Below, in pieces: positions 3,001-59,663 of a stretch of DNA of 64,000 bases (position 1 is the stretch's first letter; each line of letters begins with the position of its first letter). The notes beneath the pieces are model-generated. The model was not told where the DNA came from. It was given only the letters and a program-made list of their open reading frames with translations, and did no database searches. The stretch covers positions 59,639-123,638 of the forward strand of contig JADGRH010000001.1 of assembly GCA_017881075.1 (NCBI GenBank). The letters run 5' to 3'. The stretch comes from Minisyncoccota bacterium (GTDB lineage Bacteria > Patescibacteriota > Minisyncoccia > Phycocordibacterales > CAJBRS01). The position numbers and the translations under genes are program-made.

Positions 3001-6000
3001 CAGGTTAATGGCAACGGAGCAATCACAGGAACGATAAGTGCACCAACTTTTGTAGCTACCACAAACAATATCGCGTTCCTTTCACTAAAATCACTTTCTT
3101 CTACAATTGGAGTGGGAGTTACAAATGGAGATGTTCTTTCATTTGACTGGGGCGGAATATATCCAAAGGGGTATCAATTCAGAACATCGGCGACACAGGG
3201 GATTAATATAGATAGTTCAGGCAACGTCGGCATCGGGACGACGGCGCCAGGGGCATCTTTGCAAGTTGCTGGCACTGGTATATGGTCTAGCGTTTACGGT
3301 TTTTCTGCCGGTGGGAACGCGCCACTTGCAGTTGGCACAGCAGTACTTCGTACGGGTAATGACTTCCGTATTCAGGACGATGGTAGTTTTAAAATAAATC
3401 AAAGTGGCGCGGCGGCATTCCTGACAATATTAAACACCGGCAACGTCGGCATCGGCACGACGGCACCTAGGGAAAAACTTGATGTTGCGGGAAATATCAC
3501 CACGGATTGGGCAGACCGCTTCATTGGAACTGAATATCAAGATGGCTCTACTTACAGAATGGGTATGAAAGTAGTTACTTCAGATAGAGATTTGCAGATA
3601 ATTAACAAGAGCGCAGGAGAGAATTTTTCGGGAATTTCCTTTCATACGGGGACTGGTCCAACGGAGCGTATGAGAATTGATAAGGGCGGCAACGTCGGCA
3701 TCGGGACGACGAATCCTGGAAACAAGTTAGTTGTGAGCGGAGCCGGTTATACTTATGCAGAGGTAGATGCAAGTTCGAGCAGCGGAACATATTCCGGAGG
3801 TTATCGTGCATATAATGATGTCGGGGCACAGGTATTATTGGATATTTATGCCAGCTCCAGTGTGGGCACATATCTAGGCCAGCCTCTTTCTAATCTTGTA
3901 AGGTTAACGGATTATAGCGGTTCAAGCGGTATTGCCATAGGCACATACACAAATACTCCGCTCACGTTAGGCACCAATAATTCGGCAAGGTTGGTAATCA
4001 ATGGTGCAGGCAACGTCGGCATCGGGACGACGGCACCGAGTGCGAAGTTACAAGTAAATGTAGCCAGTGGGTATGCAAATACTTGGTGGTCAAATGATAG
4101 TGTAACTACTCCATTTAGCGCTATTTACGGAGCTCACGTTGTTGGGTCATTCGGTCAAAATTATTCAACGGGTGGAGGTGCTGATTTTGCTGGATTTAGT
4201 CACGCAAATAACGAAGTCGGGGTGGAATTTGACGGATATGTAGGGGGAACTAGTCCTACAGCACCTGCACTTTTATTGGCAGGTTGGAAGTCTAATGGCA
4301 CTACGGGTGCTTCGGCGATGAGTGGAACAGATATTATTGCGCAGATTGCGGCTGGTGCGTCTCCTGTTGTGACAGTTCAAGCAAACGGCAACGTCGGCAT
4401 CGGGACGACGTCACCTGTCTCAAAATTAGATGTCTCAGTAACTTCACCAGGGTCAACAAACTTTGGTTTAAGTGTGCGGGATTCTACCGTAACCCCAACG
4501 TATGCCAGTAATGCAGATAATCTTTTAACTGTAAGAGGGGCAGGCAGTTCGGTAACTACTTGGAAAGGAAGAATTACTGCAGGTGGAGATAATGTGGAAT
4601 TTCTTATGGGTGAATACAATTCTCTTGCTTGGTTAGGAGCGCATAATGCCGCCCTCAATGCTTGGACTAACATATATATTAACCCTGATGGTGGGTCAAA
4701 TGCATACATTGGAGATTCAGGTGGTGGAGTTAACAATATCCCAGTTCCGATTCTTGCGGTAATTAACAGCACCGGCAACGTCGGTATCGGGACGACGGCG
4801 CCAGATGTAAATCTAGCAATTGGTTCACAGTTACTTGGTGCGCAAGGATTAAGCGGAGCCGTCTTAAACCTTGGTGGTAGTTCCTCTCAAATGCCAGGCA
4901 TAAATATTGGGCAAGACGCTACTCACGCCATAGAGTTTTATTGGATAGGCAATGCGACACCTGGAAGTGCGACTGCTGCGTTGGAAACCTCTGGCTACTT
5001 AAATCCATTTGCTATTAACGGTTCAAAAACAACCATACAAAGTGCGGCTGGAAATGTGATATTGGCGACAGGTGGTGGCAACGTCGGCATCGGGACGACG
5101 GCACCGGGTGGAAAACTAAGCGTGTCCGGCGGTGCAGCTATTGGCTCATCTTACGCTACCACCGCAGTTTCGGATGGAAATCTCATAGTTTCTGGTTCTT
5201 TGGGCATCGGGACGACGGCGCCGGGGTCAAAGATTCAGGCTGTAGGAGGATATATATCAACTTTTGATAACACTGGATACGGACCTGCATTTATGCAAGG
5301 CGCAAGTGGTGTTTCATATTTCGGCAACACCGGGACTTCAAGAATTGCTTTCGGGAACAATACTAATTATGAAAGGATGACGATTTTAGATAACGGCAAC
5401 GTCGGCATCGGGACGACTACTCCGGGTTTTCTTCTCACTGTTGCTGGCACTTCCAACATCACCGGAGCGGCGATATTCGGATCGACTCTAGGAGTTACTG
5501 GTGCAACAACTCTTTCTTCAACTTTGGGCGTCACCGGCCAAACAACTCTGGCGAATGCTTCATCAACGAATCTCACCGTCTCCACTAATTCATATCTTGG
5601 AACTGTGCAGTCAGGAACTTGGAATGGAACGACCATTGCTGTAGCAAACGGAGGCACTGGCCAAACCACATACACTAATGGCCAACTCCTGATTGGTAAC
5701 ACTACCGGCAATACTCTTACAAAAGCAGCTTTGACAGGCACTACAAATCAAGTAGTAGTGACAAATAGCACAGGTTCAATCACTCTTTCCACTCCGCAGG
5801 ATATTGCTACGGCCTCCACTCCAACCTTCGCCTCAACCACTCTTTCAAACTTTACTCTAGGATCCATCCCATTCTTCGGCAGTAGTGGAAAACTGGGTCA
5901 AAACAATGCCAACTTTTTCTGGGATGGTACCAATAACAGATTAGGGATTGGGACATCTACTCCCGATACGCTCCTTACCGTTGCAGGAAACGGAAGATTC

Positions 6001-9000
6001 ACCGGCACCCTCTCCGCTTCAAATCTCTCCGGCACCAACACTGGCGATGTAACTCTAGGAGCAATTGCTGCTACTCCAAACGCAAACGGAGCTTCTCTTT
6101 CCGGGCAAGTCTTAACTTTGCAGCCAGCCTCGACTTCCTTTGGCGGTGTCGTTACAACCGGAACTCAATCGTTTACAGGAGATAAGACCTTTACATCAAA
6201 CTCACTCGCAGCTTTACAAGTTACGGGGAGTAACACAGGAAGAACCTCTATCACTGTTCAAAATACGAACGCATCAGGTAATGCATCATTCTACTTTCAA
6301 AATGATAGAGGTAGCTTCAATTCATACGGAGGCCTTTTGACAGGAGGTTCGTCAGATGTAGGAGGTACTTTATTTGGGCTTGCTCGTGCGGACAGAACCT
6401 TCTTGATAAATGATGGTACTAATGCTCTAGGACTTGCTCTTGGTACTTTGACAGCACAGCCATTGACACTAGGAACGAATAATTTGGCACGGGTCACAAT
6501 TCTAAGTGGTGGTAATGTCGGAATTGGAACGACAGCACCGACCAGCACACTTGAATTATATAGAGGCGATAACAATATCGGGCCAACTCTTACTTTGAAT
6601 AATCCTACTGGAAATGCAGGCACCGCCGGATCAGCAATAGACTTTCTCGGTTATAGCGGAGCGAGCCAGCCGGTTACTAATAGGATTAAAACCATCGACG
6701 ATGGAGCTTATGGCTATCATTTAGCATTTCTCACCAAAGCGGATTCTTCGGGAGGAGCACTTTTTGAAGCAATGAGGATACAAGGAGGCACGGGCAATGT
6801 TGGGATCGCCACCACCACTCCGGGCTTTCCACTTACAGTGACAGGCGCTTCTAATTTCACCGGCGCCCTCAACTTTAACGGCGCCGCTGGATCTTCCGGA
6901 AACATCCTCCAATCAAACGGATCGGGAAGCGCTCCAAGCTGGGTATCAACCACCACACTCGGTACCATTGCGGTAAACCAAGGCGGCACCGGCCAAACTA
7001 CTTATACAAACGGCCAGCTCTTGATCGGAAACACCACCGGAAATACATTAACAAAAGCAACTCTCACGGGCACCGCTAACCAAGTGAATGTTACGAATGG
7101 TGCTGGTTCAATTACCCTTTCTACTCCTCAAAATATTGGTACCACATCCTCTCCCACATTTAACTCTCTCAATATCGCTAATGGATCAACATATAGCGGT
7201 TGGATAGGTAATTTCGGGCTAGGCTCTGACTGGGTTGGATTTACCGCAGATGGAGCGCAAAGTGCTTCAAAGTATGCATTCGAAGCAACGGCATCATATG
7301 GTGAAACTGTTTTTAATGCTAACGGTGGGGGGACATTGCCCTTCATTGATTTTCGATTTTCCAACGGGGGTGTTGAACCTATTACCAGAATATATGGGTC
7401 TGGCGGGCTCTATTTTGGTAGTGTGGCTGGTGCTGCTGACCCCGGTTTACAGAACCTCTCTATCTTTTCTGGAAAACTTGGTGTTGGGGTTCTAACCGCT
7501 TCTGCCAAAATCCACGCCCTTTCCACCACCGAGCAATTAAGACTAGGCTACGATGCTTCCAACTACAATTCCTTTACTGTCGGTTCAACTGGAAGTCTCA
7601 CAGTCGCCGCTGTAGGAACTAATCCTAATATTACCCTCACGCCGGGCGGAACTGGGTATACCATATTGAACGGCAACGTCGGCATCGGGACGACGACGCC
7701 AGGGGCAAAGTTGAGTGTCAAAGGTGGTGGTACTACAACAGGTCTTAACTTCCAAACTACAAACTCTAATAACCTACCTTTGGTCACAATATTAGACTCC
7801 GGCAACGTCGGCATCGGGACGACGACGCCGGGGAATAAACTCCAGATAAATGCTGCTCTTGCCACTGCTTCTGAATCTTTGCTTCGTCTGTCTGGAGGGT
7901 CAACGGGATTTGCCGGGACCAATGATGCAGGCACTGCGTATTCTCTTGTGTTCGATGGTACTGCATATAGTGTTGGTACTGGAGTTGTGCAACGTGATGG
8001 TGCAAAGATTGAGATGGCAAAAGAGGCATCGTGGAACGAAGCCGGTGGTGGCGGCGGTCCGCTTGGAGCATTATTGTTCTACACGAGTGCAGGTTCAATT
8101 GCATCTCCGAAGCTAACGGAAAAAATGAGAATAACAAGTCTCGGCAACGTCGGTATCGGGACGACGGCGCCGGATTCGAAGTTAACTATTTCATCAAATA
8201 CCGCAACCTTACCGTCTGGGGCAGCCACACTTCGTATTGCTGAAGCCGATACCGTGCAGACTAGCGCGGTTATAGACGCTTTTGCTACTAACGGGCTTTT
8301 TAACTTTCGACGGGCCGACACTACGGCGGCAAGCCCCTCGGCGGTCCAGTCTGGTGAAAATTTGGGCGTGTTCGGCGCCGCTGGCTACGGAACCAGTGCT
8401 TATTCCGGCACCCGCGCCCGCGTTGGATTTTTTGCCGATGAGACTTGGACGAATACTGCTAATGGAACATCCATTCGCTTTAGCACTACGCTCAATGGCG
8501 CCGCCACAGCGGGAGGCACGGAACGCATGAGAATAGATAACGCCGGCAATGTCGGAATTGGCACCTCCACCCCGGACCAAGCTCTAGTTGTATCAGGTAC
8601 GGCAAGAGCTACCAACTTACTCGGAGGTGCCACAACTCTTTCAACCGATGCTTCAGGTAACATTATTCGTACTCCATCAGACATTAGTCTCAAGGAAAAC
8701 ATCCAAAATATCGATAGCGCTGATGCTCTAAGCCAGGTTCTAGCCCTTCAAGGAGTAACCTATTTCTGGAAGGACAAGGCGAGATTTGGCACTGCCCAAG
8801 AAATTGGCTTCATCGCCCAGCAAGTCGAACCGATTGTCCCCCAAGTAGTTAAAAGCGGAGGAGCCTACAAATCCCTTAACTATGGTAACTTAACAGCCGT
8901 CCTTGCCAGCGCCATTCAAGAGCAACAAAAACAGATTACAGCCAATGCTTCAACGACGCGGGCCAATGCCTCAAGCACCGCCTCCGCTCTTTCTTCACTG

Positions 9001-9606
9001 GATCTTAGAGTAAGTACCTTAGAGAACCTGGGACCCCAAAGAGGGGGTGGAGGAGTCAGCACTGGAATCTTTGAAGATCTCCTTTCAACACTACAATCCT
9101 TTGGCACCGAAATCGTTGACGGAGTTTCTTATATGAAGAACTTCCTTGCTGAACATCTCACTACCCAGAACTTGACTATAAAAGGCAAAGATATTACGAA
9201 GACAGGATTCACTATTTATGATCGGGCTACCGGCGATCCTATCTGCGTCTATTTTGAGAACGGGATCCAAAAGACTTCCCCAGGCGAGTGTCCCGACAGC
9301 ACAGCTACTTCAACTCCTCCAACAGACACTACCTCCATTGTCTCAGACAACAACCCCCCAATAGATCCCCTCACCGGATCCAGCACTCCTCCGATCTCCG
9401 ATATCGGATCAAATCCTCCTCCAGACCAACCCCCTCCAACACCACCACCCGCCGACCCCACTCCGCCCTCCGATCCCACCTCCTTGATAGCGCCGAGCGC
9501 CCCAACATCACCACCAGCCCCTGATACGTCAGGATCGAATCCTTCTGATTCGACGTCCGCTCCCGCTGATCCGGGCTCGGCTCCTTCCAATGGGGGAGGC
9601 AATTAG
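1..9606 (+). CDS. Giant repetitive surface/fibre-like protein (5'-truncated at window edge; >3194 aa) with C-terminal phage tail-spike-type intramolecular chaperone (peptidase S74-like) domain and Pro/Thr-rich tail
   Basis: Frame 1 is open from nt 1 with no upstream stop, and the ORF-track start at 22 is GTG. The motif GNVGIGTT(T/A)PGxKL recurs about 18 times. Near the C-terminus, 'SDISLKENIQNI...LQGVTYFWKD...IGFIAQQVEPIVPQVV...YGNLTAVLASAIQEQQ' fits the chaperone-of-endosialidase / S74 consensus. The last ~100 aa are P/T/S-rich low complexity. Stop is TAG at 9604-9606. Confidence 0.8.
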   Translation, partial: ATSSIFRVNANGNVGIGTTTPGYKLHVKSASDIQFALDVDSGGRYTSQYFLNNGSTRAVNFWDETSNNLTIGTSHSGADLIFNRGLNAAAMTISGTTGNVGIGTTTPSTKLSVAGQGFFETSTETPVGSGTPGPGIRIGYLTSGDYGYITSSNSGVAAKNLVLQPGGTGNVGINQTVPLDLLHIAGDNIATIRLQNTISGGKTYQIGSAISGVSNAGFQIYNVTNSRSEMVIDTNGNVGIGTTAPGGKLSVSGGAAIGSSYATTAVSDGNLIVSGSLGIGTTTPGSKLDIWGNLNVATGTTPALFVNTATGNVGIGVINPGKPLDVTGDIRASGNLLAGGGNAYLFNGGVRLGNSSGEIDLSANDMIYGPNAGTTNHIFKIGGNEIARINSTGIGIGTTTPGAKLHALSTTEQLRLGYDASNYNSFTVGSTGSLTVAAVGTNPNITLTPGGTGYTILNGNVGIGTTAPGQKLDVAGNINVSTNSAYMYNGLNVITASTTLSNYFFGGSGNLTMTGNANTASGYQALYSNTTGTTNTASGFRALYSNTTGTYNTASGINALYSNTTGTRNTANGLGALYSNTTGGNNAGYGINSGYGLTTGNNNTLIGPSDSVVASYNQVTTGSNNISIGNNVAVASPTASNQLNIGNLIYGTGLNGTGATISGGNVGIGTIAPDKKLEVNLGTSDALRLTYNDSDGSAANYTDFNVSSVGSLTIAPTGTNPNITLTPGGTGYTILNGNVGIGTSTPTLPLVVNGKIMSYGNSTNQITMSPAGNGVDSYAHLQIFNTAGYGQGYLDFYTYPGQGLGTPTVRWRGVDLGSYTGGHVFSASAASQNGASTDVLFVGNTGATGVLTNHFGVGVLTNAPVSALDVNGGVSIGSYAAVNAAPSNGLIVSGNVGIGTTTPGFNLQVAGTGVSAAFGAAANNNGAGVAFLGSSTGKNFFIGNQYNIGGALEITPSTANGGSTFTTPVVTILSTGNVGIGTTAPGTKLEVVGTASSTGLQVNGNGAITGTISAPTFVATTNNIAFLSLKSLSSTIGVGVTNGDVLSFDWGGIYPKGYQFRTSATQGINIDSSGNVGIGTTAPGASLQVAGTGIWSSVYGFSAGGNAPLAVGTAVLRTGNDFRIQDDGSFKINQSGAAAFLTILNTGNVGIGTTAPREKLDVAGNITTDWADRFIGTEYQDGSTYRMGMKVVTSDRDLQIINKSAGENFSGISFHTGTGPTERMRIDKGGNVGIGTTNPGNKLVVSGAGYTYAEVDASSSSGTYSGGYRAYNDVGAQVLLDIYASSSVGTYLGQPLSNLVRLTDYSGSSGIAIGTYTNTPLTLGTNNSARLVINGAGNVGIGTTAPSAKLQVNVASGYANTWWSNDSVTTPFSAIYGAHVVGSFGQNYSTGGGADFAGFSHANNEVGVEFDGYVGGTSPTAPALLLAGWKSNGTTGASAMSGTDIIAQIAAGASPVVTVQANGNVGIGTTSPVSKLDVSVTSPGSTNFGLSVRDSTVTPTYASNADNLLTVRGAGSSVTTWKGRITAGGDNVEFLMGEYNSLAWLGAHNAALNAWTNIYINPDGGSNAYIGDSGGGVNNIPVPILAVINSTGNVGIGTTAPDVNLAIGSQLLGAQGLSGAVLNLGGSSSQMPGINIGQDATHAIEFYWIGNATPGSATAALETSGYLNPFAINGSKTTIQSAAGNVILATGGGNVGIGTTAPGGKLSVSGGAAIGSSYATTAVSDGNLIVSGSLGIGTTAPGSKIQAVGGYISTFDNTGYGPAFMQGASGVSYFGNTGTSRIAFGNNTNYERMTILDNGNVGIGTTTPGFLLTVAGTSNITGAAIFGSTLGVTGATTLSSTLGVTGQTTLANASSTNLTVSTNSYLGTVQSGTWNGTTIAVANGGTGQTTYTNGQLLIGNTTGNTLTKAALTGTTNQVVVTNSTGSITLSTPQDIATASTPTFASTTLSNFTLGSIPFFGSSGKLGQNNANFFWDGTNNRLGIGTSTPDTLLTVAGNGRFTGTLSASNLSGTNTGDVTLGAIAATPNANGASLSGQVLTLQPASTSFGGVVTTGTQSFTGDKTFTSNSLAALQVTGSNTGRTSITVQNTNASGNASFYFQNDRGSFNSYGGLLTGGSSDVGGTLFGLARADRTFLINDGTNALGLALGTLTAQPLTLGTNNLARVTILSGGNVGIGTTAPTSTLELYRGDNNIGPTLTLNNPTGNAGTAGSAIDFLGYSGASQPVTNRIKTIDDGAYGYHLAFLTKADSSGGALFEAMRIQGGTGNVGIATTTPGFPLTVTGASNFTGALNFNGAAGSSGNILQSNGSGSAPSWVSTTTLGTIAVNQGGTGQTTYTNGQLLIGNTTGNTLTKATLTGTANQVNVTNGAGSITLSTPQNIGTTSSPTFNSLNIANGSTYSGWIGNFGLGSDWVGFTADGAQSASKYAFEATASYGETVFNANGGGTLPFIDFRFSNGGVEPITRIYGSGGLYFGSVAGAADPGLQNLSIFSGKLGVGVLTASAKIHALSTTEQLRLGYDASNYNSFTVGSTGSLTVAAVGTNPNITLTPGGTGYTILNGNVGIGTTTPGAKLSVKGGGTTTGLNFQTTNSNNLPLVTILDSGNVGIGTTTPGNKLQINAALATASESLLRLSGGSTGFAGTNDAGTAYSLVFDGTAYSVGTGVVQRDGAKIEMAKEASWNEAGGGGGPLGALLFYTSAGSIASPKLTEKMRITSLGNVGIGTTAPDSKLTISSNTATLPSGAATLRIAEADTVQTSAVIDAFATNGLFNFRRADTTAASPSAVQSGENLGVFGAAGYGTSAYSGTRARVGFFADETWTNTANGTSIRFSTTLNGAATAGGTERMRIDNAGNVGIGTSTPDQALVVSGTARATNLLGGATTLSTDASGNIIRTPSDISLKENIQNIDSADALSQVLALQGVTYFWKDKARFGTAQEIGFIAQQVEPIVPQVVKSGGAYKSLNYGNLTAVLASAIQEQQKQITANASTTRANASSTASALSSLDLRVSTLENLGPQRGGGGVSTGIFEDLLSTLQSFGTEIVDGVSYMKNFLAEHLTTQNLTIKGKDITKTGFTIYDRATGDPICVYFENGIQKTSPGECPDSTATSTPPTDTTSIVSDNNPPIDPLTGSSTPPISDIGSNPPPDQPPPTPPPADPTPPSDPTSLIAPSAPTSPPAPDTSGSNPSDSTSAPADPGSAPSNGGGN
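1561..1800 (+). repeat. In-frame tandem repeat of a ~60-nt unit (about 4 copies), encoding NTASG(Y/F/I)xALYSNTTGTxNTASG, inside the giant gene
   Basis: 'caccgccagtggt...gcgctctatagcaacaccactggaacc' is visibly repeated at 1553-1612, 1613-1672, 1673-1732 and 1733-1790. Confidence 0.8.
9391..9412. repeat. REP-type palindrome TCCGATATCGGA (family 1), embedded in the 3' coding region of the giant gene (encodes PISDIGS)
   Basis: Perfect 12-nt palindrome tccgatatcgga preceded by the partial duplicate tccgatc. The same core recurs at 10438-10449 and 10520-10531. Confidence 0.7.
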
Positions 9607-9736
9607 GGGTTAATCCCTGGTGGAATATCCATAAGAGGTTAAACCTCTTATGAGCTTAGATCATGATTACTCACATTCTCATTAAAATTTCCATTAGTTT
9701 ACACGGTCTAGTGATGAAATATCGCTTCTTATTGCG

Positions 9737-9762
9737 TTAATCTACGCTCCGATCTCCGATGT
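9737..9762. repeat. REP-type near-palindrome (tccgatgtcgga variant of family 1) overlapping the 3' end of the RAYT gene
   Basis: 'gctccgatctccgatgtcggatcgaattc' has the same core as the other family-1 copies with a central 2-nt change. It encodes the RAYT C-terminus ...PTSEIGA. Confidence 0.6.
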
Positions 9763-10428
9763 CGGATCGAATTCATCAAATGTTTTGGCAGGACTTGTGT
9801 CTACAAAATGCTTGTACTCTTCTTTGTTTTTAAATTGGTCAAGAATGAGATCTGTTTTTAGAAGTTCACCCCATCGATTTTCTCCAATATAGTCTTGATA
9901 ACTTGACCAAGGGTAAAAATGCTCCTTGTCCTTCCACCCCGGCAATTCTCGTGCGTTTCTATGAATATAAGCGGAAAGGTGAAGCAACTGAGTATTGTCT
10001 GCAATCAGGACACTCTTGAAAGCTCCCTGAAATAGGTGCCCGATATGAAGATCTTTATATTTTTCATTATTATATTTTGTAGCGGAGATTATAATTCTTT
10101 GTAAATATTTTGATAAAGCTCCATCTTTTTTCCCTGTCGCACTTAGATGAAAGTGATTTGGCATTAAGCCGAATGAGTGAAGCTCCACAGTACGCGAGGC
10201 GACGATCTCCGAAATGATTTTCTTGCTGACCTGGAATTTCCTATGCTTCTCAAAGTATTTTACATATTGAGATAGGTGGCTAAACTTAATCGGAGACTGG
10301 AAAAATAGTATAGTAAAAAGAAAGCGAATATAATCGCGATTATCGTGGAAAATAATTTGCTTATTATTGCCTCTGCTAAGGAGATGAAATACTTCACCCG
10401 CGGCCAAGTTGTCTTTTCTATATGGCAT
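9742..10428 (-). CDS. REP-associated tyrosine transposase (RAYT; IS200/IS605-like HUH transposase)
   Basis: HUH motif 'LMPNHFHL', size about 228 aa, conserved Tyr-containing C-terminal region, flanked on both sides by family-1 REP palindromes. Confidence 0.75.
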   Translation of the reverse strand: MPYRKDNLAAGEVFHLLSRGNNKQIIFHDNRDYIRFLFTILFFQSPIKFSHLSQYVKYFEKHRKFQVSKKIISEIVASRTVELHSFGLMPNHFHLSATGKKDGALSKYLQRIIISATKYNNEKYKDLHIGHLFQGAFKSVLIADNTQLLHLSAYIHRNARELPGWKDKEHFYPWSSYQDYIGENRWGELLKTDLILDQFKNKEEYKHFVDTSPAKTFDEFDPTSEIGA

Positions 10429-12925: not shown

Positions 12926-13792
12926 ATGTCTTTAACCGACAAAGAGATCCAACATTTAGAAGAAAAAGCGAACGACATCCGTCTTTCTATCATTGAAATG
13001 CTCATTGAAGCCGGCTCCGGCCACACCGCTGGCCCTCTCGGTATGGCCGACATTTTCACTGCTCTTTATTTTCAAATCTTAAATCACGACCCGAAAAAGC
13101 CAGACTGGCCGGAAAGGGATCGATTGGTCTTATCAAATGGCCACATCTGCCCGGTTCTATATTCCACCATGGCTCATTCAGGTTATTTTCCGGTGGAAGA
13201 ATTAAAGACTCTGCGTAAATTTGGCTCCCGTCTCCAAGGTCATCCCCATAGAGATTTTCTTCCATATCTTGAAAATAGTTCCGGCCCACTCGGATCAGGT
13301 CTTTCGCAAGCCACTGGTATGGCCCTTGCCGATAGAATTGATCGCGGTGATAGCAATGATCGCTACATTTATTGCCTGATGAGTGATGGGGAATTGGATG
13401 CCGGAAATAGTTGGGAGGGAGCGATGCTTGCCGGCAAGGAGAAATTGAGAAACCTGATCGCCATCGTTGACCGCAATAATATTCAGATAGACGGCTTTAC
13501 CGAAGACATCATGCCACTTGAAAATCTCCGAGCTCGTTGGGAGGCTTGGAATTGGCACGTGCTCGAGATAGACGGCCACAATTTCAATGAGATCGTTGAT
13601 GCGGTCGGTGAGGCAAAGGCTGTTTTTGAAAAACCAACAGTCATAATTGCCCACACTATTCCCGGCAAAGGAGTAAAGGAATTTGAACGAGACTATCGAT
13701 GGCACGGTAAAGCACCCAATAAAGAAGAAGCGAAAATGGCATTGAACGAATTACGAACATTAGGAGGAAAAATTAAAAGCGAACTTGAATAA
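12926..13792 (+). CDS. Transketolase, N-terminal (TPP-binding) subunit of a split transketolase
   Basis: 'GSGHTAGPLGMADIFTALYF' and 'LSNGH' motifs. 288 aa, matching the N-terminal half only. Overlaps the next gene by 8 nt. Confidence 0.85.
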   Translation: MSLTDKEIQHLEEKANDIRLSIIEMLIEAGSGHTAGPLGMADIFTALYFQILNHDPKKPDWPERDRLVLSNGHICPVLYSTMAHSGYFPVEELKTLRKFGSRLQGHPHRDFLPYLENSSGPLGSGLSQATGMALADRIDRGDSNDRYIYCLMSDGELDAGNSWEGAMLAGKEKLRNLIAIVDRNNIQIDGFTEDIMPLENLRARWEAWNWHVLEIDGHNFNEIVDAVGEAKAVFEKPTVIIAHTIPGKGVKEFERDYRWHGKAPNKEEAKMALNELRTLGGKIKSELE

Positions 13793-14804
13793 TCTAAACC
13801 CCAAAATTTTTGATAAAGATGTAGAACAAGTGCCGATCCGAAAAGGATTCGGCGAAGGGCTTCTCATTGCCGGAGAAAAAAATGAAAATGTTGTCGGGCT
13901 TTGCGCTGATTTAACAGAGTCAACACAAATGCATCTTTTCAAACAAAAATTTCCAAATCGATTCGTTCAAGTCGGTGTGGCCGAGCAGAATTTAGCCACC
14001 GTTGCTTCCGGTATGACCGCTATGGGAAAGATCCCGTTCATATCTTCTTACGCCATGTTCAGTCCCGGCCGCAATTGGGAGCAGATCCGTACCACTATTT
14101 GCTATAACAATGCTAACGTCAAAATTGCCGGCAGCCACGCCGGAGTTTCGGTCGGGCCTGATGGCGGGAGCCATCAGGCCCTTGAAGACATCTCTATTAC
14201 GAGAGTAATCCCTCGAATGACAGTCATTTCGCCTTGTGATGCCATTGAAGCCAGAAAAGCTACTCTCGCCGCGGCCGAGATGGTGGGGCCTGTTTATATC
14301 CGTCTTGCTCGCGAGAAAACTCCCATCATCACTACCGAAGAGACACCTTTTGAGATCGGCCTTGGTCAAATATTTTATGATTCGGATGAGAGGGGTTCGA
14401 CCTCTAAAATTGAGGGGTCGAACCCCTCCAAAAGGGCGGGGATCATTGCCACGGGTGCTCTTGTTTACCAAGCAATAATAGCAGCTAAAGAATTGGAAAA
14501 GGAAGGGATTTCAGTCAAAGTTTTAAATCTTGCCACCATCAAACCACTTGATGAAGCTGCTATCTTGCTCTTGGCAAAAGAGACGAGAGCTATCGTTACT
14601 GTAGAAGAACATCAGATCAATGGGGGAATGGGTTCGGCTGTGGCCGAAAGTTTGGCTAAACATTTTCCAGTACCAGTGGAATTCATTGGTGCCAAAGATA
14701 AGTTTGGTCAGTCCGGAACTCCAGCAGAACTGATTGAGCACTATGGCATGGGCATCGATTCCATCAAAAAAGCAGTGAAGGATGTCTTAGCCCGAAAAAA
14801 ATAA
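13785..14804 (+). CDS. Transketolase, C-terminal (pyrimidine-binding) subunit, carrying an in-frame palindromic insertion
   Basis: 'FVQVGVAEQNLATVASGM...' Pyr-domain signature. Residues ERGSTSKIEGSNPSKR are encoded by a 13-bp perfect inverted repeat. Confidence 0.85.
   Translation: MNNLNPKIFDKDVEQVPIRKGFGEGLLIAGEKNENVVGLCADLTESTQMHLFKQKFPNRFVQVGVAEQNLATVASGMTAMGKIPFISSYAMFSPGRNWEQIRTTICYNNANVKIAGSHAGVSVGPDGGSHQALEDISITRVIPRMTVISPCDAIEARKATLAAAEMVGPVYIRLAREKTPIITTEETPFEIGLGQIFYDSDERGSTSKIEGSNPSKRAGIIATGALVYQAIIAAKELEKEGISVKVLNLATIKPLDEAAILLLAKETRAIVTVEEHQINGGMGSAVAESLAKHFPVPVEFIGAKDKFGQSGTPAELIEHYGMGIDSIKKAVKDVLARKK
14390..14428. repeat. Perfect 13-bp inverted repeat (gaggggttcgacc ... ggtcgaacccctc, 13-nt spacer) lying in frame inside the tkt C-subunit gene
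   Basis: Direct inspection: 14390-14402 is the reverse complement of 14416-14428. Confidence 0.8.
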
Positions 14805-26733: not shown

Positions 26734-26797
26734 CCTATCTCATTTTGACCTCCTTTTCAACCTTTATTTTAAGGCTTAATTTGGCTATAATCGACTT

Positions 26798-27946
26798 ATG
26801 AGAAATATTTTTGAGGTGTCATATGAGGATCAAAAGAAGGCTTTAACCACGCTCGATGCTCTACATGATCCTGAAAACGAACGAATTAAAAGGTTTTTAA
26901 AAATGTCGGATTTATCTCGAACAGTCGGCAGTCCTATTGCCGAAATGGTAGAGAAAATTCTGGCCCGCCCGGAATTCAAAGATTTCGATGTTATTGAAAC
27001 GCCCGAAGTGGTGCCTACAACTATTAGTTTTGATCTTTTCGATTTTCCAAAAGATCATCCGGCCAGAAGCCGCTCCGATACCTACTACGTGAACGATGAA
27101 AATATTCTCCGAACTCACACCACCGTAATGTGGTATTACTATTTAAAGGAGAAAGATGTCCAAAAAAGAATGAGTAAGGGAGAGCCGGTCGGCTGTTTTT
27201 CCTTCGGAAAAGTTTATCGAAAGGATGAGATTGATCGAAATCACATGAATGTCTTCCATCAGCTGGACGGCTGGTATCTTGCCCCAAAAGAGAGAGAAAA
27301 AATTGGCGCAGATGAATTGAAAAAAGTTTTAGGAGCTATTGCCGAAGCGGTATATGGCCCGAAAATGGAAAAACGATATAACCCCGATGAATTTCCATAC
27401 ACTGACCCGTCTCTTGAAATGGAAATCAAGCCGGATGATCGATGGATTGAAGTTTTGGGGAGCGGAGTGGTGAAAGACAGCGTTTTGGATAAGCTCGGCA
27501 TTGATTCAAATAAATGGAATGGCTGGGCTTTCGGCTTTGGACTGGAGCGGTTAGCCATAGTTTCAATGGAATTGCCGGACATCCGCCTCCTCTGGTCGGA
27601 AGACGAAAGAGTGAAGAAGCAGTTGAAGCTCGGTTCTAAATTCAAAGAAGTCAGCAAATTTCCGCCGGTTATCCGCGACATTTCTTTTATTGCTCCCAAA
27701 AATTTAATTTTAAATCACTACTTTGATCGCATTCGCGATATTGTCGACGATCAAATCGAGGAAATGAAACTAACCGATAAATATGAGAATGATGCCAAGT
27801 TCGGTGTGGATAAAATGAGTTATACCTGGAGACTGACTTATCGAGATTTGAATAAAACTTTAACTAGTGAGGAAGTAAACGGTTTGCACGCTAAAGTTGA
27901 AGAAATGACAGAAAAGGAATTCAACGCCGCTGTAAGAAGAGCATAA
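26798..27946 (+). CDS. pheS: Phenylalanine--tRNA ligase alpha-type catalytic domain fused to a C-terminal FDX-ACB (PheT-type anticodon-binding) domain; monomeric/mitochondrial-type architecture
   Basis: Class II motifs 'HPARSRSDTYY', 'FGKVYRKDEIDRNHMNVFHQLDG' and 'GWAFGFGLERLAIVSMELPDIRLLW'. These are followed by ~100 aa 'KFPPVIRDISFIAP...YTWRLTYRDLNKTLTSEEVN' resembling the FDX-ACB domain. No pheT is adjacent. Confidence 0.7.
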   Translation: MRNIFEVSYEDQKKALTTLDALHDPENERIKRFLKMSDLSRTVGSPIAEMVEKILARPEFKDFDVIETPEVVPTTISFDLFDFPKDHPARSRSDTYYVNDENILRTHTTVMWYYYLKEKDVQKRMSKGEPVGCFSFGKVYRKDEIDRNHMNVFHQLDGWYLAPKEREKIGADELKKVLGAIAEAVYGPKMEKRYNPDEFPYTDPSLEMEIKPDDRWIEVLGSGVVKDSVLDKLGIDSNKWNGWAFGFGLERLAIVSMELPDIRLLWSEDERVKKQLKLGSKFKEVSKFPPVIRDISFIAPKNLILNHYFDRIRDIVDDQIEEMKLTDKYENDAKFGVDKMSYTWRLTYRDLNKTLTSEEVNGLHAKVEEMTEKEFNAAVRRA

Positions 27947-27951: not shown

Positions 27952-28278
27952 ATGGAAGATAAAATTCGACAAATTCTTTCGGATATAGGTTTCGTGGAAT
28001 CCGATAATGGAAATAAAATTTTTAAAATTAAGGATGGCATCCTTACCGTTGCTATTTCTAAACCTTCTTCGGGTAAGACGGTAAACGAAGAAATTCGCCA
28101 AACTCGTGAATATCTCTTGAAAAACCTTGATGCTAAAATTTTGACTCTCTGCACCATTGATGATACAGGTGGAATTTTAATGCTAGGAAAGGAGAAAATC
28201 GGTGAAATTAATAGAATAGATGGAGTAATGGAGATAAATCTCCATAAATTACTAAATAGTGCCTCAACTAAGGGTTAA
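27952..28278 (+). CDS. Hypothetical protein
   Basis: 108-aa ORF with good coding appearance, following pheS by 5 nt. No recognisable motif. Confidence 0.35.
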   Translation: MEDKIRQILSDIGFVESDNGNKIFKIKDGILTVAISKPSSGKTVNEEIRQTREYLLKNLDAKILTLCTIDDTGGILMLGKEKIGEINRIDGVMEINLHKLLNSASTKG

Positions 28279-28296
28279 ATTGAGTCAGTGTTAGCT

Positions 28297-28326
28297 TGGC
28301 AAAGAGGCCAGTAAAATGCTATAATA
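28297..28326 (+). promoter_or_regulatory. Candidate sigma70-type promoter (TTGGCA-N18-TATAAT) upstream of gyrB
   Basis: ttggca at 28297-28302 and tataat at 28321-28326, about 30 nt upstream of the gyrB start. Confidence 0.4.
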
Positions 28327-28358: not shown

Positions 28359-30476
28359 TTGTTTCAAAAAATGGCAAAAGATAGCAAAGAAAAAGATGTA
28401 AAAAAGGGCTCATATGGGGCTGCTGATATTACGGTATTAGAAGGGTTGGAACCGGTCCGAAAGCGGCCGGGAATGTATATCGGTACCACCGGCCCGGACG
28501 GCCTCCACCACCTCATTACAGAAATATTTGACAATGCCCGCGATGAAGCCATGGGTGGTTTTGCTAATGATATTGAAATTGCCTTTCTGCCAAACAACCG
28601 AATCCGAGTAGTAGACAATGGCCGAGGTATTCCGGTGGATATGCACAAGCAGACGAAAGTTTCGGCGTTGGAGACTATCATGACCACACTCCACGCCGGA
28701 GGAAAATTCGGAGGTGAGAACAGTAGCTACAAAGTTTCCGGCGGGCTTCACGGTGTGGGTGCCTCAGTGGTCAATGCCCTTTCAATTTATACCAAGGTGA
28801 CAGTACATAAAGATGGGGGAGTGTATGTTCAGGAATATTCTCAAGGCAAGCGAAAAGCAGCAGTCAAAAAGATTGGTAACACAAAACTTTCCGGCACCAT
28901 TGTTATCTTTGAACCGGATCCGGCCATTTTCAGTGAGATTAAATTTGATTTTGAAAAGATAGTTTCTCATATGCGACAGCAGGCGTATTTAGTGAAGAGT
29001 TTGCGCATCTCTCTCCTTAATTTTACGGAAGTAAAAGAAAAAATTGAAACGGATAAGGTCTTCTATCTGCGAGAACTTGATCTAGAGGGACCATCACAAA
29101 CTTTTTATTTTGAAGGTGGACTTTTGTCTTTGGTCAAATTCTATAACCAACTCCAAAAACCGATCCACAAAAATATTTTTTATGTAGAGAAGAAAGTGGA
29201 AGGGGTGGAATCAGTGGAAGTAGCTTTGCAATACGTAGATGATATTGCTTCAAGAGTAGTGACTTTTGCCAATAATATTAATACTCCCGAAGGAGGAACA
29301 CATCTCACTGGTTTTAAAACCGCTCTGACTAGAACTCTAAACAGCTACGGCCGCAAAACGAACATTATTAAAGAATCGGAAGACAATTTTACTGGTGATG
29401 ATGTTCTGGAAGGTCTTACCGCCATCGTTTCGGTAAAGCTCCGAGAGATCCAATTTGAGGGCCAAACAAAGGCTAAATTAGGCAGCATGGAGGCCCAGAG
29501 TGCAGTAAACACGGTCTTTGGCGAGGCCTTTTCGGCGTATCTCGAGGAGAATCCGGATGATGCTCGATCTATCATCAACAAATCAATATTGGCTCTGAAG
29601 TCTCGGAAGGCAGCCAAGGCGGCCAAAGATTCCATCTTGCGCAAAGGTGCCTTGGAAGGAATGACCTTACCCGGAAAGCTGGCTGACTGCCAGTCAAAAG
29701 AAGCTAGTGAATCGGAGCTATTCATCGTAGAGGGGGATTCGGCCGGCGGTACGGCCAAGATGGGGCGCGACCGAAGGACTCAGGCCATACTGCCTCTCCG
29801 AGGAAAGATTTTAAATATTGAACGGGCACGACTTGATAAGATGCTTGCTTCCGAGCAGATCAAGAATTTGGTTATTGCTATCGGCACGGCTATCGGCGAC
29901 ACCTTTGATATTTCCAAACTTCGCTATCACAAAATTATTATCGCCACCGATGCCGACGTTGACGGTGCGCACATTCGCACTCTTATTTTGACTTTGTTCT
30001 ACCGATATTTCCGGCCGCTTCTCGATGGCGGCTTTATTTACATCGCCCAGCCGCCACTTTATAAAGTGAAATATGGAAAAGAAGTCTTGTATTTCTATAC
30101 TGAAGAAGAGAAAGATAAATTTCTGGTCAAAGAAAAAGTGGAAGTGGAGGAGGTGAAGGAAAGTGATGACAACAATAATGAGGTGGAAGTTTCGGAAGAG
30201 GAGAACGAGGAATCAGCCGAAGTGTCGACTGGTAAAAAAGCGGTCGCTTCGGCAAAAAAGAAAATCAGTATCCAAAGATATAAAGGTCTCGGAGAAATGA
30301 ACGCCGAAGAGCTTGGTGAGACCACTATGAATGTAAACAATCGCATCTTGAAACAAGTAAATGTAGATGACGCCGAAGCGGCTGACAAAGTGATTGAGGT
30401 CCTCATGGGCACCGACGTCCCTTCTCGCAAATCCTTCATCCAATCAAACGCCAAGGCTGCGAATATTGATATATAA
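28359..30476 (+). CDS. gyrB: DNA gyrase subunit B (type IIA topoisomerase B subunit)
   Basis: GHKL ATPase 'LEGLEPVRKRPGMYIG', 'HHLITEIFDNARDEA', Toprim 'FIVEGDSAGG', 'PLRGKILN'. Contains an acidic low-complexity insertion before the C-terminal region. Confidence 0.85.
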   Translation: MFQKMAKDSKEKDVKKGSYGAADITVLEGLEPVRKRPGMYIGTTGPDGLHHLITEIFDNARDEAMGGFANDIEIAFLPNNRIRVVDNGRGIPVDMHKQTKVSALETIMTTLHAGGKFGGENSSYKVSGGLHGVGASVVNALSIYTKVTVHKDGGVYVQEYSQGKRKAAVKKIGNTKLSGTIVIFEPDPAIFSEIKFDFEKIVSHMRQQAYLVKSLRISLLNFTEVKEKIETDKVFYLRELDLEGPSQTFYFEGGLLSLVKFYNQLQKPIHKNIFYVEKKVEGVESVEVALQYVDDIASRVVTFANNINTPEGGTHLTGFKTALTRTLNSYGRKTNIIKESEDNFTGDDVLEGLTAIVSVKLREIQFEGQTKAKLGSMEAQSAVNTVFGEAFSAYLEENPDDARSIINKSILALKSRKAAKAAKDSILRKGALEGMTLPGKLADCQSKEASESELFIVEGDSAGGTAKMGRDRRTQAILPLRGKILNIERARLDKMLASEQIKNLVIAIGTAIGDTFDISKLRYHKIIIATDADVDGAHIRTLILTLFYRYFRPLLDGGFIYIAQPPLYKVKYGKEVLYFYTEEEKDKFLVKEKVEVEEVKESDDNNNEVEVSEEENEESAEVSTGKKAVASAKKKISIQRYKGLGEMNAEELGETTMNVNNRILKQVNVDDAEAADKVIEVLMGTDVPSRKSFIQSNAKAANIDI

Positions 30477-48280: not shown

Positions 48281-48411
48281 GCCTGGTGGTTTTGAGTTCG
48301 AGTCCTTAACCCCCAACAAATAAATAAAAGATAATTTTAAGATAATGTTATTGACAAAATGGCTAAATAGGCGTAGTTATATATTATTATTTGCTTAATA
48401 ATTATATTGCC

Positions 48412-49557
48412 ATGAAAAAACTTCAATTTTCAGCCATATTTTTCAGCCTAATTTTGACAGTGATGTTCTTTCCACATTTCGGATTGGCTGACACCGTTGG
48501 TCTCTCTGTGAGTAGTATGAGCAATAACAGGGTTCAGATTAACGTAAATGGCGACAGTAATTATTCTGTAGATCTTTTTTACCAAGTATCTCCGTCATCG
48601 CCCACCATCCCTGTTGGTTCTATTGGCACCACCGACTCAAGTGGTTACTTTTCTGCCATTCTAAATAGTGGCAGCTACAATCTCTCATCGGGTTATAGAG
48701 TATATGTGGAAGTGAATGGCCAGCAATCAAACACCGTGATCTGGCCGTCTTCTGACAATAACAATAACGACCAAATCACTTTCAGTCAGAACAATATAGA
48801 ATTGGATTATAACCAAAGCATCACCGTAAATATTTATGGTGGCTCCGGCTCGTATTATATTTCTTCCAATTCAAATTCTGATTTTGTCAACGCCTCAATC
48901 AGCGGTAATCAAATTTATCTCTCAACTGACAATAATAATCAGTATAACGGTGACTCGGCTACCATCCGTGTCTGTTCTCGTAATGGTAATTCAAGTTGTG
49001 GTTATCTGTATGTAACCCAGAGTGGCAATAATAATAATGAACAGGTTAGTTTCAGCCAAAATAATATTAATCTCAATATCGGCCAACAAGTTCAAACCAC
49101 TATCTACGGTTCCGGCAGTTACTACATTTCTAACAATTCTAATTCAAATGTGGTCAACGCTTATCTAAACGGCAATACTCTGAATATTACAGGAAGTCAA
49201 AGTGGTTCAGCCACTATCAGAGTTTGTTCCAATAATAGTAATTCAAGTTGTGGCAATCTTCATGTCAGTGTCAGTGGCAACTATTATAATAATAACAATG
49301 GCTACTACAATAATCCTCCCATCGTCTACGTTCAGAATCCAACCACTCCTATGTATACTCAGTCTATTTATGGCGGATTAGGCACGCCGTCCGCCGGAGT
49401 ATTCTTAAGCCATGTGCCTTCAACCGGCATCAGTTTCAATCTGAAAATGGCTCTCTTTTTCATCGGCCTCTTTATGTGGAGTGCTTTCGGTGCTTTTATG
49501 ATTCTTTCCTACCAAGAAAGCAAGAAATTACTGGCTGACCTAGAAAAGAGAAATTAA
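48412..49557 (+). CDS. Secreted surface protein with repeated Ig-like modules and a C-terminal VPSTG + TM + charged-tail sorting-signal-like module
   Basis: Signal peptide from the ATG at 48412. Repeated '...ATIRVCS.N.NSSCG.L.V..SG' modules. C-terminus 'HVPSTGISFNLKMALFFIGLFMWSAFGAFMILSYQESKK...'. Confidence 0.6.
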   Translation: MKKLQFSAIFFSLILTVMFFPHFGLADTVGLSVSSMSNNRVQINVNGDSNYSVDLFYQVSPSSPTIPVGSIGTTDSSGYFSAILNSGSYNLSSGYRVYVEVNGQQSNTVIWPSSDNNNNDQITFSQNNIELDYNQSITVNIYGGSGSYYISSNSNSDFVNASISGNQIYLSTDNNNQYNGDSATIRVCSRNGNSSCGYLYVTQSGNNNNEQVSFSQNNINLNIGQQVQTTIYGSGSYYISNNSNSNVVNAYLNGNTLNITGSQSGSATIRVCSNNSNSSCGNLHVSVSGNYYNNNNGYYNNPPIVYVQNPTTPMYTQSIYGGLGTPSAGVFLSHVPSTGISFNLKMALFFIGLFMWSAFGAFMILSYQESKKLLADLEKRN

Positions 49558-58211: not shown

Positions 58212-59663
58212 ATGAACAAAATTTTAAAAACAATTAAATACAGCTTAGGAATTATGGTAATCCTTGCCTTTGCTTCTATTTCTATGGGGCAAGTTGTTTA
58301 TGCGGATACCCCATCTGATTATGGATCAGGAAGCTACTACGACTACACTCCTGATTATGGATCTGGAAGTTATTACAACTATACCCCTGATTATGGATCC
58401 GGCAGTTACTATAATTATACTCCTGACTATGGCTCAGGCAGTTACTACGATTCTTCTCCGACCTACACTGATAATACTTCCGGCAATGGTTACGGCACCG
58501 ACTATGGTTATTACTACGGAGACAACTGTGGCTCTAGTTGCGACACTACTAATTATGGCACTGACCAGGGTTATTACTATGGTAATAACTGTGATACTAG
58601 TTGCGACACCGCTAGCAATGATTATGGTTACGGTGGCTCTGGTGGTGGCTACGGAGGCTGTTCTTACGGTTGTGGTAGTAGTAACTCCGGAAGTTATGGC
58701 ATGCCATCCTACAATTCCTACGGCACTCCCTCTTACAATCCACCATCTTACAATTACAACCCCACCCCTACCTATTACAATCCTCCATCTTCTAACGGCT
58801 CCGGCGCTATCGTAGTGAATAACAACAATAACAATACAAATAACAACACCAACAACAATAATGTGGTAGTGAATATTCCTCCGGTCAATACTGTCACTCC
58901 TCCGCCACCCCCACCTCCTCCTGTCTACAACAACCTTACTGCTTACTGTGTTGGCACCCCTTCTAATCCTCAAATTGGAGATAATGTTACATGGAGAGTC
59001 TATGCCTCGGGGGGTAATGGTAACTACAATTATTCTTGGAGAGGAGATGTCTCTGGTAATAACACAACTGAAAACGCCAACTATTATAATAGTGGTACAG
59101 AGAGTGCTTCAGTCAGGGTAACAACCTCAAATGGCGATAGCTTTACTACCGACCAATGTGAAGTAAACGTGCAACCACGAGGATCAACCATTTCTAATGT
59201 TACGGTCTATACTCCACCAACAGGCACTCCTAGCGCAGGTGTATTCCTTAGCCAAATTCCTGCTACTGGCATCAGCCCTACGATGAAATTGGCTCTCTTC
59301 ATTCTCGGACTCTTTCTCTGGAGCGCCTTCGGAGCCTACATGATTCTGGAACGACGCAAGATGGGTACATTGGCTACTGCTGGTATCAATGCTTCCGACA
59401 TGGAAGATGAGGCCGACGAAGTGGTCACTGAACCGACGGAATCAATTCCAGCTGACGATCTTGAAAGTAATCTTTCTTTCCGAGCGCGCGAGAACAATGT
59501 TCTCATCTCTCGAGATGGTCTTGCCGTCATAATGAATCGAGCCAATGGCAATCAGGGCGAGGCTGAAAACATCCTTTCACAACTCGTGAGCAAGGTTTCC
59601 AGAAATGACGGAGATTACGCTACACTGAACGGAGAAAAAATTAATAAATTACTTAATAGTTAA
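58212..59663 (+). CDS. Secreted Tyr/Gly/Ser-rich repeat protein with a C-terminal IPATG + conserved TM module followed by a ~105-aa cytoplasmic tail
   Basis: Signal peptide. 4 tandem 36-nt repeats encoding YGSGSYY(D/N)YTPD. Cys-rich and Asn-rich stretches and a Pro8 run. 'TPSAGVFLSQIPATGISPTMKLALFILGLFLWSAFGAYMILERRK' is shared with the 48412 gene. Confidence 0.6.
   Translation: MNKILKTIKYSLGIMVILAFASISMGQVVYADTPSDYGSGSYYDYTPDYGSGSYYNYTPDYGSGSYYNYTPDYGSGSYYDSSPTYTDNTSGNGYGTDYGYYYGDNCGSSCDTTNYGTDQGYYYGNNCDTSCDTASNDYGYGGSGGGYGGCSYGCGSSNSGSYGMPSYNSYGTPSYNPPSYNYNPTPTYYNPPSSNGSGAIVVNNNNNNTNNNTNNNNVVVNIPPVNTVTPPPPPPPPVYNNLTAYCVGTPSNPQIGDNVTWRVYASGGNGNYNYSWRGDVSGNNTTENANYYNSGTESASVRVTTSNGDSFTTDQCEVNVQPRGSTISNVTVYTPPTGTPSAGVFLSQIPATGISPTMKLALFILGLFLWSAFGAYMILERRKMGTLATAGINASDMEDEADEVVTEPTESIPADDLESNLSFRARENNVLISRDGLAVIMNRANGNQGEAENILSQLVSKVSRNDGDYATLNGEKINKLLNS

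Follow-up and report, generated by a model that had tools for sequence, protein, structure and literature searches.

A single-chain, mitochondrial-type phenylalanyl-tRNA synthetase as the probable housekeeping enzyme of a Paceibacteria bacterium

We analyzed a 64,000-nucleotide stretch of DNA from an ultra-small Minisyncoccota bacterium (positions 59,639 to 123,638 of contig JADGRH010000001.1; hereafter the window), in which one gene encodes a PheS-like catalytic core and a PheT-like anticodon-binding domain in a single polypeptide. Textbooks describe the phenylalanyl-tRNA synthetase (PheRS) of bacteria, archaea and the eukaryotic cytosol as an (alpha-beta)2 heterotetramer and treat the single-chain form as an organellar peculiarity. 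We conclude that the fused protein is very probably the sole, working PheRS of this organism and of the single-chain, mitochondrial type, because its chromosomal slot alternates with pheS-pheT between the same neighbors in related genomes. The gene and its parts are:

26798..27946, plus strand: fused single-chain PheRS gene; ATG start, 382 amino acids (aa), stop codon at 27944-27946.
26798..26932, plus strand: N-terminal extension, aa 1-45, with predicted helices at residues 10-20 and 25-35 (AlphaFold2 secondary structure).
26933..27622, plus strand: class IIc catalytic core, aa 46-275; PF01409 (tRNA-synt_2d), 188.8 bits versus a cutoff of 19.8.
27209..27277, plus strand: motif 2 region, aa 138-160, 'KVYRKDEIDRNHMNVFHQLDGWY', aligned with the E. 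coli and mitochondrial counterparts.
27521..27565, plus strand: motif 3, aa 242-256, 'GWAFGFGLERLAIVS', from the alignment and column counts.
27623..27652, plus strand: interdomain linker, aa 276-285, the presumed hinge, from the HMMER alignment to 5mgu and 8p8x.
27653..27937, plus strand: ferredoxin-fold anticodon-binding (FDX-ACB) domain, similar to PheT B8, aa 286-380; PF03147, 68.1 bits.

A preliminary description of this DNA, made from the sequence, had recognized a PheS core with the class II motifs and had proposed that the C-terminal extension is an FDX-ACB domain. The Pfam matches bear out both assignments: the extension covers the FDX-ACB profile in full (positions 1-94 of 94, gathering cutoff 31.1 bits) and also matches positions 691-798 of TIGR00472 pheT_bact and residues 696-794 of E. 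coli PheT (tblastn, 26% identity). Its AlphaFold2-predicted fold is beta-alpha-beta-beta-alpha. The boundary had to be moved, however. Canonical PheS had been described as ending at '...PDIRLLW', but it runs ~12 residues further (E. coli '...DLRSFFENDLRFLKQFK', candidate phyla radiation (CPR) '...DVRLFYQGDLRLNQF'), and the true extension, ~105 aa long, begins after '...SEDERVKKQL'. In the alignment, canonical PheS sequences stop at the position of the linker, which comes after a conserved helix ('PDIRLLWSEDERVKKQL') common to mitochondrial PheRS ('PDIRLFWCEDERFLKQF'). At the other end of the protein, the N-terminal extension stands in place of the long coiled-coil arm of canonical PheS alpha; E. 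coli PheS has ~100 extra N-terminal residues in this alignment, and the phage-like and CPR canonical forms have almost none.

The residues expected of a working synthetase are strictly conserved. Among 49 Paceibacteria homologs, we found the following positions to be invariant: (i) in the catalytic core, H87 and R90 (HPAR), R105 and T109 (LRTHTT), R141 and E144 (motif 2), H154, Q155 and D157 (FHQxDG), F199, T202 and S205 (FPYTDPS), and A244, G246 and R251 (motif 3, GWAFGFGLER); (ii) in the FDX-ACB domain, R293, D294, S296, R345, Y348 and R349; and (iii) in the N-terminal region, R29, D38-L39-S40-R41 and P46. In motif 3, A244 lines up with an Ala in E. coli 'GFAFGMG' that we take to be the specificity residue A294. 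The window protein would be specific for phenylalanine. An identical protein (P0001) is on record in NCBI and in a Logan assembly, and homologs align from residue 1 to ~380 with 58-87% identity. All of the best 120 homologs are ~380 aa long and carry both domains; the named ones come from Parcubacteria, Paceibacterota, Minisyncoccia or Zambryskibacteria. Identity of the fused protein across Paceibacteria (58-72%) keeps step with that of GyrB in the same loci (51-75%), so the fused gene is, judging from these sequences, under housekeeping-level constraint.

The layout of a catalytic core followed by FDX-ACB had been called mitochondrial in type, and comparison with known structures agrees. The best matches in the PDB by sequence are human mitochondrial PheRS (mtPheRS; 3cmq, 5mgu and 8p8x, ~182 bits), with an alignment that spans the helix ('PDIRLLWSEDERVKKQ' in one protein, 'PDIRLFWCEDERFLKQF' in the other), the linker and the entire C-terminal domain, whereas bacterial PheS alpha subunits score at most 126 bits and align over the core only. 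We built an AlphaFold2 model from 49 homologs, with a mean predicted local distance difference test score (pLDDT) of 90.1 and a predicted template modeling score of 0.86; pLDDT drops around aa 281-290, near the linker. The top Foldseek matches of this model in the PDB are closed human mtPheRS structures (5mgv, 3cmq and 8p8x; template modeling (TM) scores of 0.77-0.79 over 389-408 columns). Superposition on 3cmq and 5mgv gave TM scores of 0.77 by query and 0.73 by target over 389 columns (E ~1e-32), versus 0.57 for the open, tRNA-bound human enzyme 3tup. Bacterial PheS alpha structures cover the core alone.

The fused protein belongs to a wider family of two-domain enzymes. An exhaustive HMMER search of 1.84 billion cluster representatives (50% identity clusters) returned 217 clusters at E<=1e-30, among them a choanoflagellate mitochondrial enzyme, Schizosaccharomyces Msf1 and a protein from an Oligoflexia metagenome-assembled genome (MAG); both domains were detectable in 102 of the best 150. 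Phylogeny of the catalytic domain, which had been suggested as a check, separated the fused, mitochondrial-type enzymes from canonical PheS (neighbor-joining only, 217 columns, 100 bootstraps). All fused enzymes, including mitochondrial and viral copies, are monophyletic (100/100), and canonical CPR PheS forms a separate clade (94/100). Within the fused clade, the Paceibacteria enzymes make up one group (100/100) on a deep branch separate from the mitochondrial, viral and ~350-aa forms, which group together (82/100). Pairwise scores follow the same division: the window core scores 139-243 bits against seven of eight fused relatives versus 112-134 bits against PheS, and the anticodon-binding domain scores 57-80 bits against five of seven fused relatives versus 31-40 bits against B8 of CPR and E. 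coli PheT. The window core is ~30% identical to local CPR PheS, and CPR PheS is 43-50% identical to that of E. coli.

We also observed fused PheRS of ~350 aa on 40 viral contigs from IMG/VR (loci L165-L204), many of them 200-536 kb in length. The contig sizes suggest huge phages, and GVMAG bins or a 1.47-Mb bin suggest giant viruses. A further copy lies on a 160-kb phage-like Logan contig (L083, 10001-11065), together with dCMP deaminase, a dNMP kinase and ThyX.

The genomic setting carries most of the functional argument. At least 200 matching stretches turned up when one genome per GTDB species was scanned with a narrow pattern; we analyzed the best 80 together with the window strain's own Logan contig (L001), taking ~10 kb around the gene in each of these 81 related loci. 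The GTDB loci were chosen by carrying the fused gene, so ancestral states are not inferable from them, and the taxon labels of many MAGs are generic. The best 80 relatives fall across Yanofsky-, Zambryski-, Giovannoni-, Nomura-, Vogel-, Lipton-, Brenner- and Harrisonbacteria. As far as these sequences indicate, the fused PheRS is common in Paceibacteria, being standard across much of the group and unusual for bacteria at large. The preliminary description had called the layout uncommon in bacteria; this stands for bacteria in general but not for Paceibacteria, given at least 200 stretches and 217 clusters, and viral copies exist as well. Each of the 81 related loci and the window holds exactly one PheS-like gene, and no PheT B3/4, B5 or B6/7 domain was found in their 1.4 Mb in total. 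Of the 80 GTDB loci, 63 contain a gyrB match, as does L001.

To obtain CPR PheT, metagenome loci were fetched with the window's ThrRS as the query; a B2-only protein used as the query gave small B2-only proteins alone. Six of the ThrRS-fetched loci (L084, L090, L091, L094, L095 and L099; ThrRS 65-72% identical to that of the window) carry the canonical pair, always as pheS, then pheT, then gyrB on the same strand; the pair thereby occupies the slot that the fused gene has in the window. When loci with a full-length gyrB open reading frame (ORF) are counted, 59 have the fused gene (the window and L001 included; 38 on the same strand as gyrB and 21 divergent) and four have pheS-pheT. Across 163 loci, 83 carry the fused gene only, six carry pheS-pheT only, and none carries both.

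The most direct case is L084, Candidatus Nomurabacteria RIFCSPLOWO2_01_FULL_39_17, which nests among fused-gene loci in the GyrB tree (GyrB 80-87% identical to its nearest relatives). L084 and ten relatives share genes for proteins of 744, 231 and 299 aa, thrS and gyrB on one flank and a 982-aa helicase gene on the other. Between gyrB and the helicase gene, L084 has pheT (611 aa), pheS (255 aa) and a pilin-like gene. In the ten relatives, the fused gene adjoins gyrB on the opposite strand, with the helicase gene next in eight; in L078, it fills the entire 1.24-kb gap between gyrB and the helicase gene. One slot with the same neighbors and alternate occupants argues for in-situ displacement of one functional equivalent by another. 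On this sequence evidence, the fused gene, most likely a xenolog from the wider single-chain family, appears to have taken over, within Paceibacteria, the site upstream of gyrB that a reduced pheS-pheT operon had occupied.

We considered whether a recent in-frame deletion within the local operon of pheS and pheT, linking PheS to B8, instead gave rise to the fused gene, a scenario that bears on origin only and leaves the function the same. The fused gene does sit where relatives have pheS-pheT, in 38 loci on the same strand as gyrB, and related PheT proteins show stepwise domain loss. Against this stand the low identity of the core to local CPR PheS, the higher scores of the anticodon-binding domain to fused relatives than to PheT B8, and the trees, in which the fused enzymes are monophyletic with the CPR PheS clade excluded. 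The opposite strand in the nearest relatives of L084, taken with the low identity and the trees, argues in the same direction. We rejected a recent fusion on grounds of sequence distance, tree topology and opposite strand, and regard it as extremely improbable.

Several points weigh against a housekeeping role. The window protein falls under the curated cutoffs of all three NCBIfam models that we compared. It reaches 222.2 bits against TIGR00469 pheS_mito (equivalog cutoff 258.35; the model was presumably built from eukaryotic sequences) and 164.9 bits against TIGR00468 pheS (cutoff 237.45), and its top model is NF051887, 'PheS-related mystery ligase SrmL' (250.5 bits versus a cutoff of 300), whose function the curators call unknown. 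Two pocket positions depart from the norm: D157, which is Glu in canonical and mitochondrial PheRS, is Asp in 49 of 49 Paceibacteria sequences, and Y201 replaces the usual Phe, with 41 Tyr and eight Phe among the same sequences. The search for pheS-pheT covered the 64-kb window, out of a contig of 169,236 bp, and the related loci, which are part of each genome, and canonical PheT is common in sister Paceibacteria. If pheT were placed at random, ~1.7 copies would be expected in the 1.4 Mb examined (assuming genomes of ~0.8 Mb), and their absence from it counts for little on its own. MAG names and locus-tag prefixes showed no overlap between fused-gene and PheT matches, a weak test given that few matches carry names.

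In an alternative reading, the fused protein would be a paralogous, SrmL-like ligase related to PheS, working beside a canonical PheS and PheT encoded elsewhere in the genome. Its match to SrmL takes in the C-terminal domain as well as the core (profile positions 20-345 of 349), the SrmL family seems to share the fused architecture, canonical PheT occurs in related Paceibacteria, and the window is only part of the genome. Yet none of ten diverse relatives reaches the SrmL cutoff (219-274 bits), whereas six of the ten pass pheS_mito. One of these six, P0121, is 60% identical to the window protein and exceeds the TIGR00469 cutoff with 264.3 bits; the other five are prokaryote- or virus-like proteins of 345-400 aa, and the six range from 264 to 361 bits. 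The catalytic residues and the anticodon-binding domain are strongly constrained, at a level of conservation that matches GyrB, and genomes this small seldom retain redundant synthetases. A paralog living alongside pheS-pheT would not readily account for the slot alternation: among close relatives, the fused gene and the canonical pair share the slot and never occur together in the locus. We therefore consider an SrmL-like paralog unlikely and prefer the reading of the fused protein as the housekeeping PheRS, in a genome that presumably has no pheS-pheT elsewhere. The preliminary description would have been contradicted by a canonical pheT elsewhere in the genome combined with a C-terminal extension lacking an FDX-ACB match. 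The FDX-ACB match is present, and canonical pheT was seen in sister Paceibacteria (Nomurabacteria), so a test by pheT applies genome by genome and not lineage-wide.

The canonical enzymes found in the same slot of relatives are themselves reduced. PheS is 240-282 aa and PheT 400-648 aa long, and the PheT lengths (648, 611, 482, 437 and 400 aa) trace a stepwise loss of domains. The 611-648 aa forms lack B2. Many CPR PheRS beta subunits are without the B2 domain (PMC5370408). The PheT proteins of L090, L095 and L099 (400-482 aa, with B5, CLM and FDX-ACB) lack both B2 and the B3/4 editing domain, and they are paired, upstream of gyrB, with core-only PheS of 240-257 aa. Such a pair would be an editing-less, minimal two-subunit PheRS, as judged from its domain content. 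The genes concerned are:

L090 14301-15614, minus strand: editing-less PheT.
L095 14933-16135, minus strand: editing-less PheT.
L099 1562-3010, minus strand: editing-less PheT.
L090 16019-16792: PheS partner of the editing-less PheT.
L095 16139-16861: PheS partner of the editing-less PheT.

A second reduced element is a small stand-alone protein of the B2 type. In one Paceibacteria subclade, genes with PF01588 as the only domain (130-150 aa) lie directly upstream of the fused PheRS:

L046 9523-9981, plus strand: stand-alone tRNA_bind gene (PF01588 only).
L049 9326-9772, plus strand: stand-alone tRNA_bind gene (PF01588 only).
L070 ~9546-9971, plus strand: stand-alone tRNA_bind gene (PF01588 only).
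L068 ~7-243, plus strand: stand-alone tRNA_bind gene (PF01588 only).

The B2-only family numbers at least 563 proteins, and each of the 120 listed stands alone and is small (119-212 aa). From its domain and position, the B2-only protein may be a tRNA-binding cofactor that acts in trans. It is therefore conceivable that the fused protein is a catalytic PheRS that needs a small tRNA-binding partner of this kind, a stand-alone OB-fold protein of the B2 type, or that it acts as a homodimer. The 140-150 aa genes adjoining the fused gene in L046, L049, L070 and L068, and the size of the B2-only family, speak for a partner in trans. However, we detected no PF01588-only gene in the window, nor in 77 of the 81 related loci; the predicted structure is that of a closed, compact monomer; and human mtPheRS, with the same architecture, is reported to be a monomer that needs no small partner. 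This arrangement is, in our estimate, slightly less probable still than the SrmL-like paralog, and a self-sufficient, probably monomeric, single-chain enzyme remains the preferred reading.

Based on these homologies, we propose how the single-chain PheRS would work. Phe and ATP would bind to the class IIc core (aa 46-275) and react there to give Phe-AMP, from which Phe would pass to A76 of tRNA-Phe. Recognition of the GAA anticodon would fall to the ferredoxin-fold domain (aa 286-380), a homolog of B8 of the beta subunit. If the enzyme behaves like human mtPheRS, this domain would rest against the core in a closed state and would have to move outward on the linker after '...DERVKKQL' before tRNA could bind, a hinge motion that we infer from the match to 3cmq versus 3tup and from the titles of these PDB entries. 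Published work on human mtPheRS reportedly describes a large closed-to-open hinge motion on tRNA binding. Without a B3/4 editing domain, mischarged Tyr-tRNA-Phe would not be cleared in cis, and discrimination between Phe and Tyr must then rest on the active-site pocket or on a factor in trans. Loss of editing looks tolerable in this lineage because the PheT of relatives has lost B2 and, in some cases, also B3/4. The fused xenolog would have taken the place of a pheS-pheT pair already reduced in this way.

These findings matter in several respects. A broad range of free-living or episymbiotic bacteria likely rely on the single-chain form as their housekeeping PheRS, and close relatives with the two-subunit form in the same slot are natural controls. 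Bacterial and viral outgroups are now on hand for testing the origin of mitochondrial PheRS. The group also offers a natural experiment on abandoning PheRS editing, with editing-less PheT in related lineages as well. In NCBI, most named matches to the fused enzyme are called 'hypothetical protein', and JGI names the fused enzyme 'alpha chain' and the B2-only protein 'PheRS beta chain'; this annotation gap could distort completeness or marker-gene estimates for CPR that rely on pheS and pheT. A broader scenario is possible, though we hold it only tentatively and think it less probable than its negation: that the single-chain enzymes are an old family moving between bacteria and viruses and no eukaryotic invention, that they repeatedly displaced the (alpha-beta)2 enzyme in Paceibacteria, and that the mitochondrial enzyme came from such a donor. 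In this same tentative scenario, displacement would end a series of reductions that runs from loss of B2 through loss of B3/4 editing to loss of the whole beta subunit. If it were true, a large bacterial class would depend for its Phe codons on a ~44-kDa enzyme that does no editing and ranks with the smallest synthetases known.

The immediate surroundings of the gene in the window are as follows:

26786-26791, plus strand: TATAAT hexamer, 6 nt before the PheRS ATG, read from the sequence.
27952..28278: 108-aa ORF downstream of the fused PheRS gene, with no Pfam or NCBIfam match.
28296-28325: strong promoter-like site of gyrB's own, 11 of 12 matches, with an extended -10.
28359..30476, plus strand: gyrB, the conserved gene that marks the PheRS slot by synteny; it is context and no part of the enzyme.

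Here the preliminary description was right that no pheT is nearby and that an unrelated small ORF and then gyrB follow the gene. A Pfam scan of 20 ORFs (288-781 aa) found no pheT or second pheS in the window, and tblastn of the window with PheS and PheT of E. coli and of a CPR bacterium matched the fused gene only. E. coli RplT, RpmI and InfC gave no match in the loci or the window, which is uninformative on whether pheST lies beside infC-rpmI-rplT. The 108-aa ORF was weighed as a PheRS partner and rejected, as it has no family match and was found in the same strain only. Upstream, a 64-bp intergenic region separates the fused gene from a divergent glycosyltransferase gene, and no Rfam leader, T-box or attenuator was found in it. 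The start codon has no obvious Shine-Dalgarno sequence before it. The TATAAT hexamer could conceivably be a -10 box, in which case the transcript might be leaderless or nearly so; a promoter scan of the upstream region did not report this site and found no -35 match. With its own promoter-like site, gyrB need not share a transcript with the PheRS gene.

Elsewhere, the window carries housekeeping genes usual for a small genome, encoding EF-Ts, tRNA-Thr, GyrB, ThrRS, DnaE, a release factor, GAPDH, a split transketolase and MreB. The transketolase is encoded by two overlapping plus-strand ORFs, one for the thiamine pyrophosphate-binding N-terminal part (12926-13792) and one for the pyrimidine-binding and C-terminal part (13785-14804). 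A 3194-aa ORF (22-9606, plus strand), whose sole Pfam match is a Peptidase_S74 endosialidase chaperone at aa 2886-2944, is probably a large surface or fiber protein. Three plus-strand ORFs of 655, 483 and 388 aa (51854-53821, 58212-59663 and 48391-49557) have no Pfam match at E<=1e-4. The ThrRS of the window (59686-61434, minus strand) is 72% identical to that of L084 (10001-11752), and the ThrRS of the nearest GyrB relatives of L084 (80-87%; L042, L078 and others) is just 52-62% identical to it, which suggests from sequence comparison that ThrRS has also been exchanged among Paceibacteria.

Among known systems, the closest is mitochondrial PheRS (human FARS2, 3CMQ and 3TUP; yeast Msf1; TIGR00469). 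The single-chain form appears in AARS Online only under the name 'PheRS-M', exemplified by FARS2 (PMC11580382). The two share a class IIc core, a linker and a C-terminal FDX-ACB domain in one chain, the helix 'DIRLxW.eDERf..Q' and the same catalytic residues, and both lack beta-subunit domains B1-B7 and any editing domain. The likeness extends to full-length sequence and fold, with ~31% identity to human mtPheRS in the structural alignment and 38-41% to the choanoflagellate and fission-yeast enzymes. In contrast to these, the window enzyme is bacterial (CPR/Paceibacteria) and chromosomal, has 382 aa versus ~415-450, lacks the insertion after motif 2, has its own 45-aa helical N-terminal extension, carries D157 for Glu and Y201 for Phe, and scores below the TIGR00469 cutoff.

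Relative to canonical (alpha-beta)2 PheRS, the core is homologous to PheS (~31% identity to E. coli PheS) and the C-terminal domain to PheT B8, and the same reaction would be expected. The window enzyme differs in lacking the N-terminal coiled coil, B1, B2, B3/4 editing, B5 and B6/7; its gene has no adjacent pheT, its score is below the TIGR00468 cutoff, and it continues with a 105-aa FDX-ACB segment past the end of PheS. SrmL (NF051887), compared by profile score alone, has an apparently similar architecture, with the window protein and ten relatives below its cutoff; we found no paper describing SrmL in the full-text literature. Virus-encoded fused PheRS (huge phages, giant-virus bins, IMG/VR) has the same two-domain architecture at ~350 aa, likewise without the mitochondrial insertion, and falls in the same clade. 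It differs in being ~33-38% identical to the window protein, in clustering with the mitochondrial branch, in lacking the Paceibacteria N-terminal extension, and in residing in mobile or viral genomes versus the housekeeping slot of the window gene. We found no paper on a bacterial or CPR single-chain PheRS or on its alternation with pheS-pheT, which, with incomplete literature coverage, is absence of evidence only; the NCBIfam models show that curators have already met bacterial proteins of the fused build. The architecture and probable mechanism are thus those of mitochondrial PheRS, and what is new is a bacterial and probably housekeeping member.

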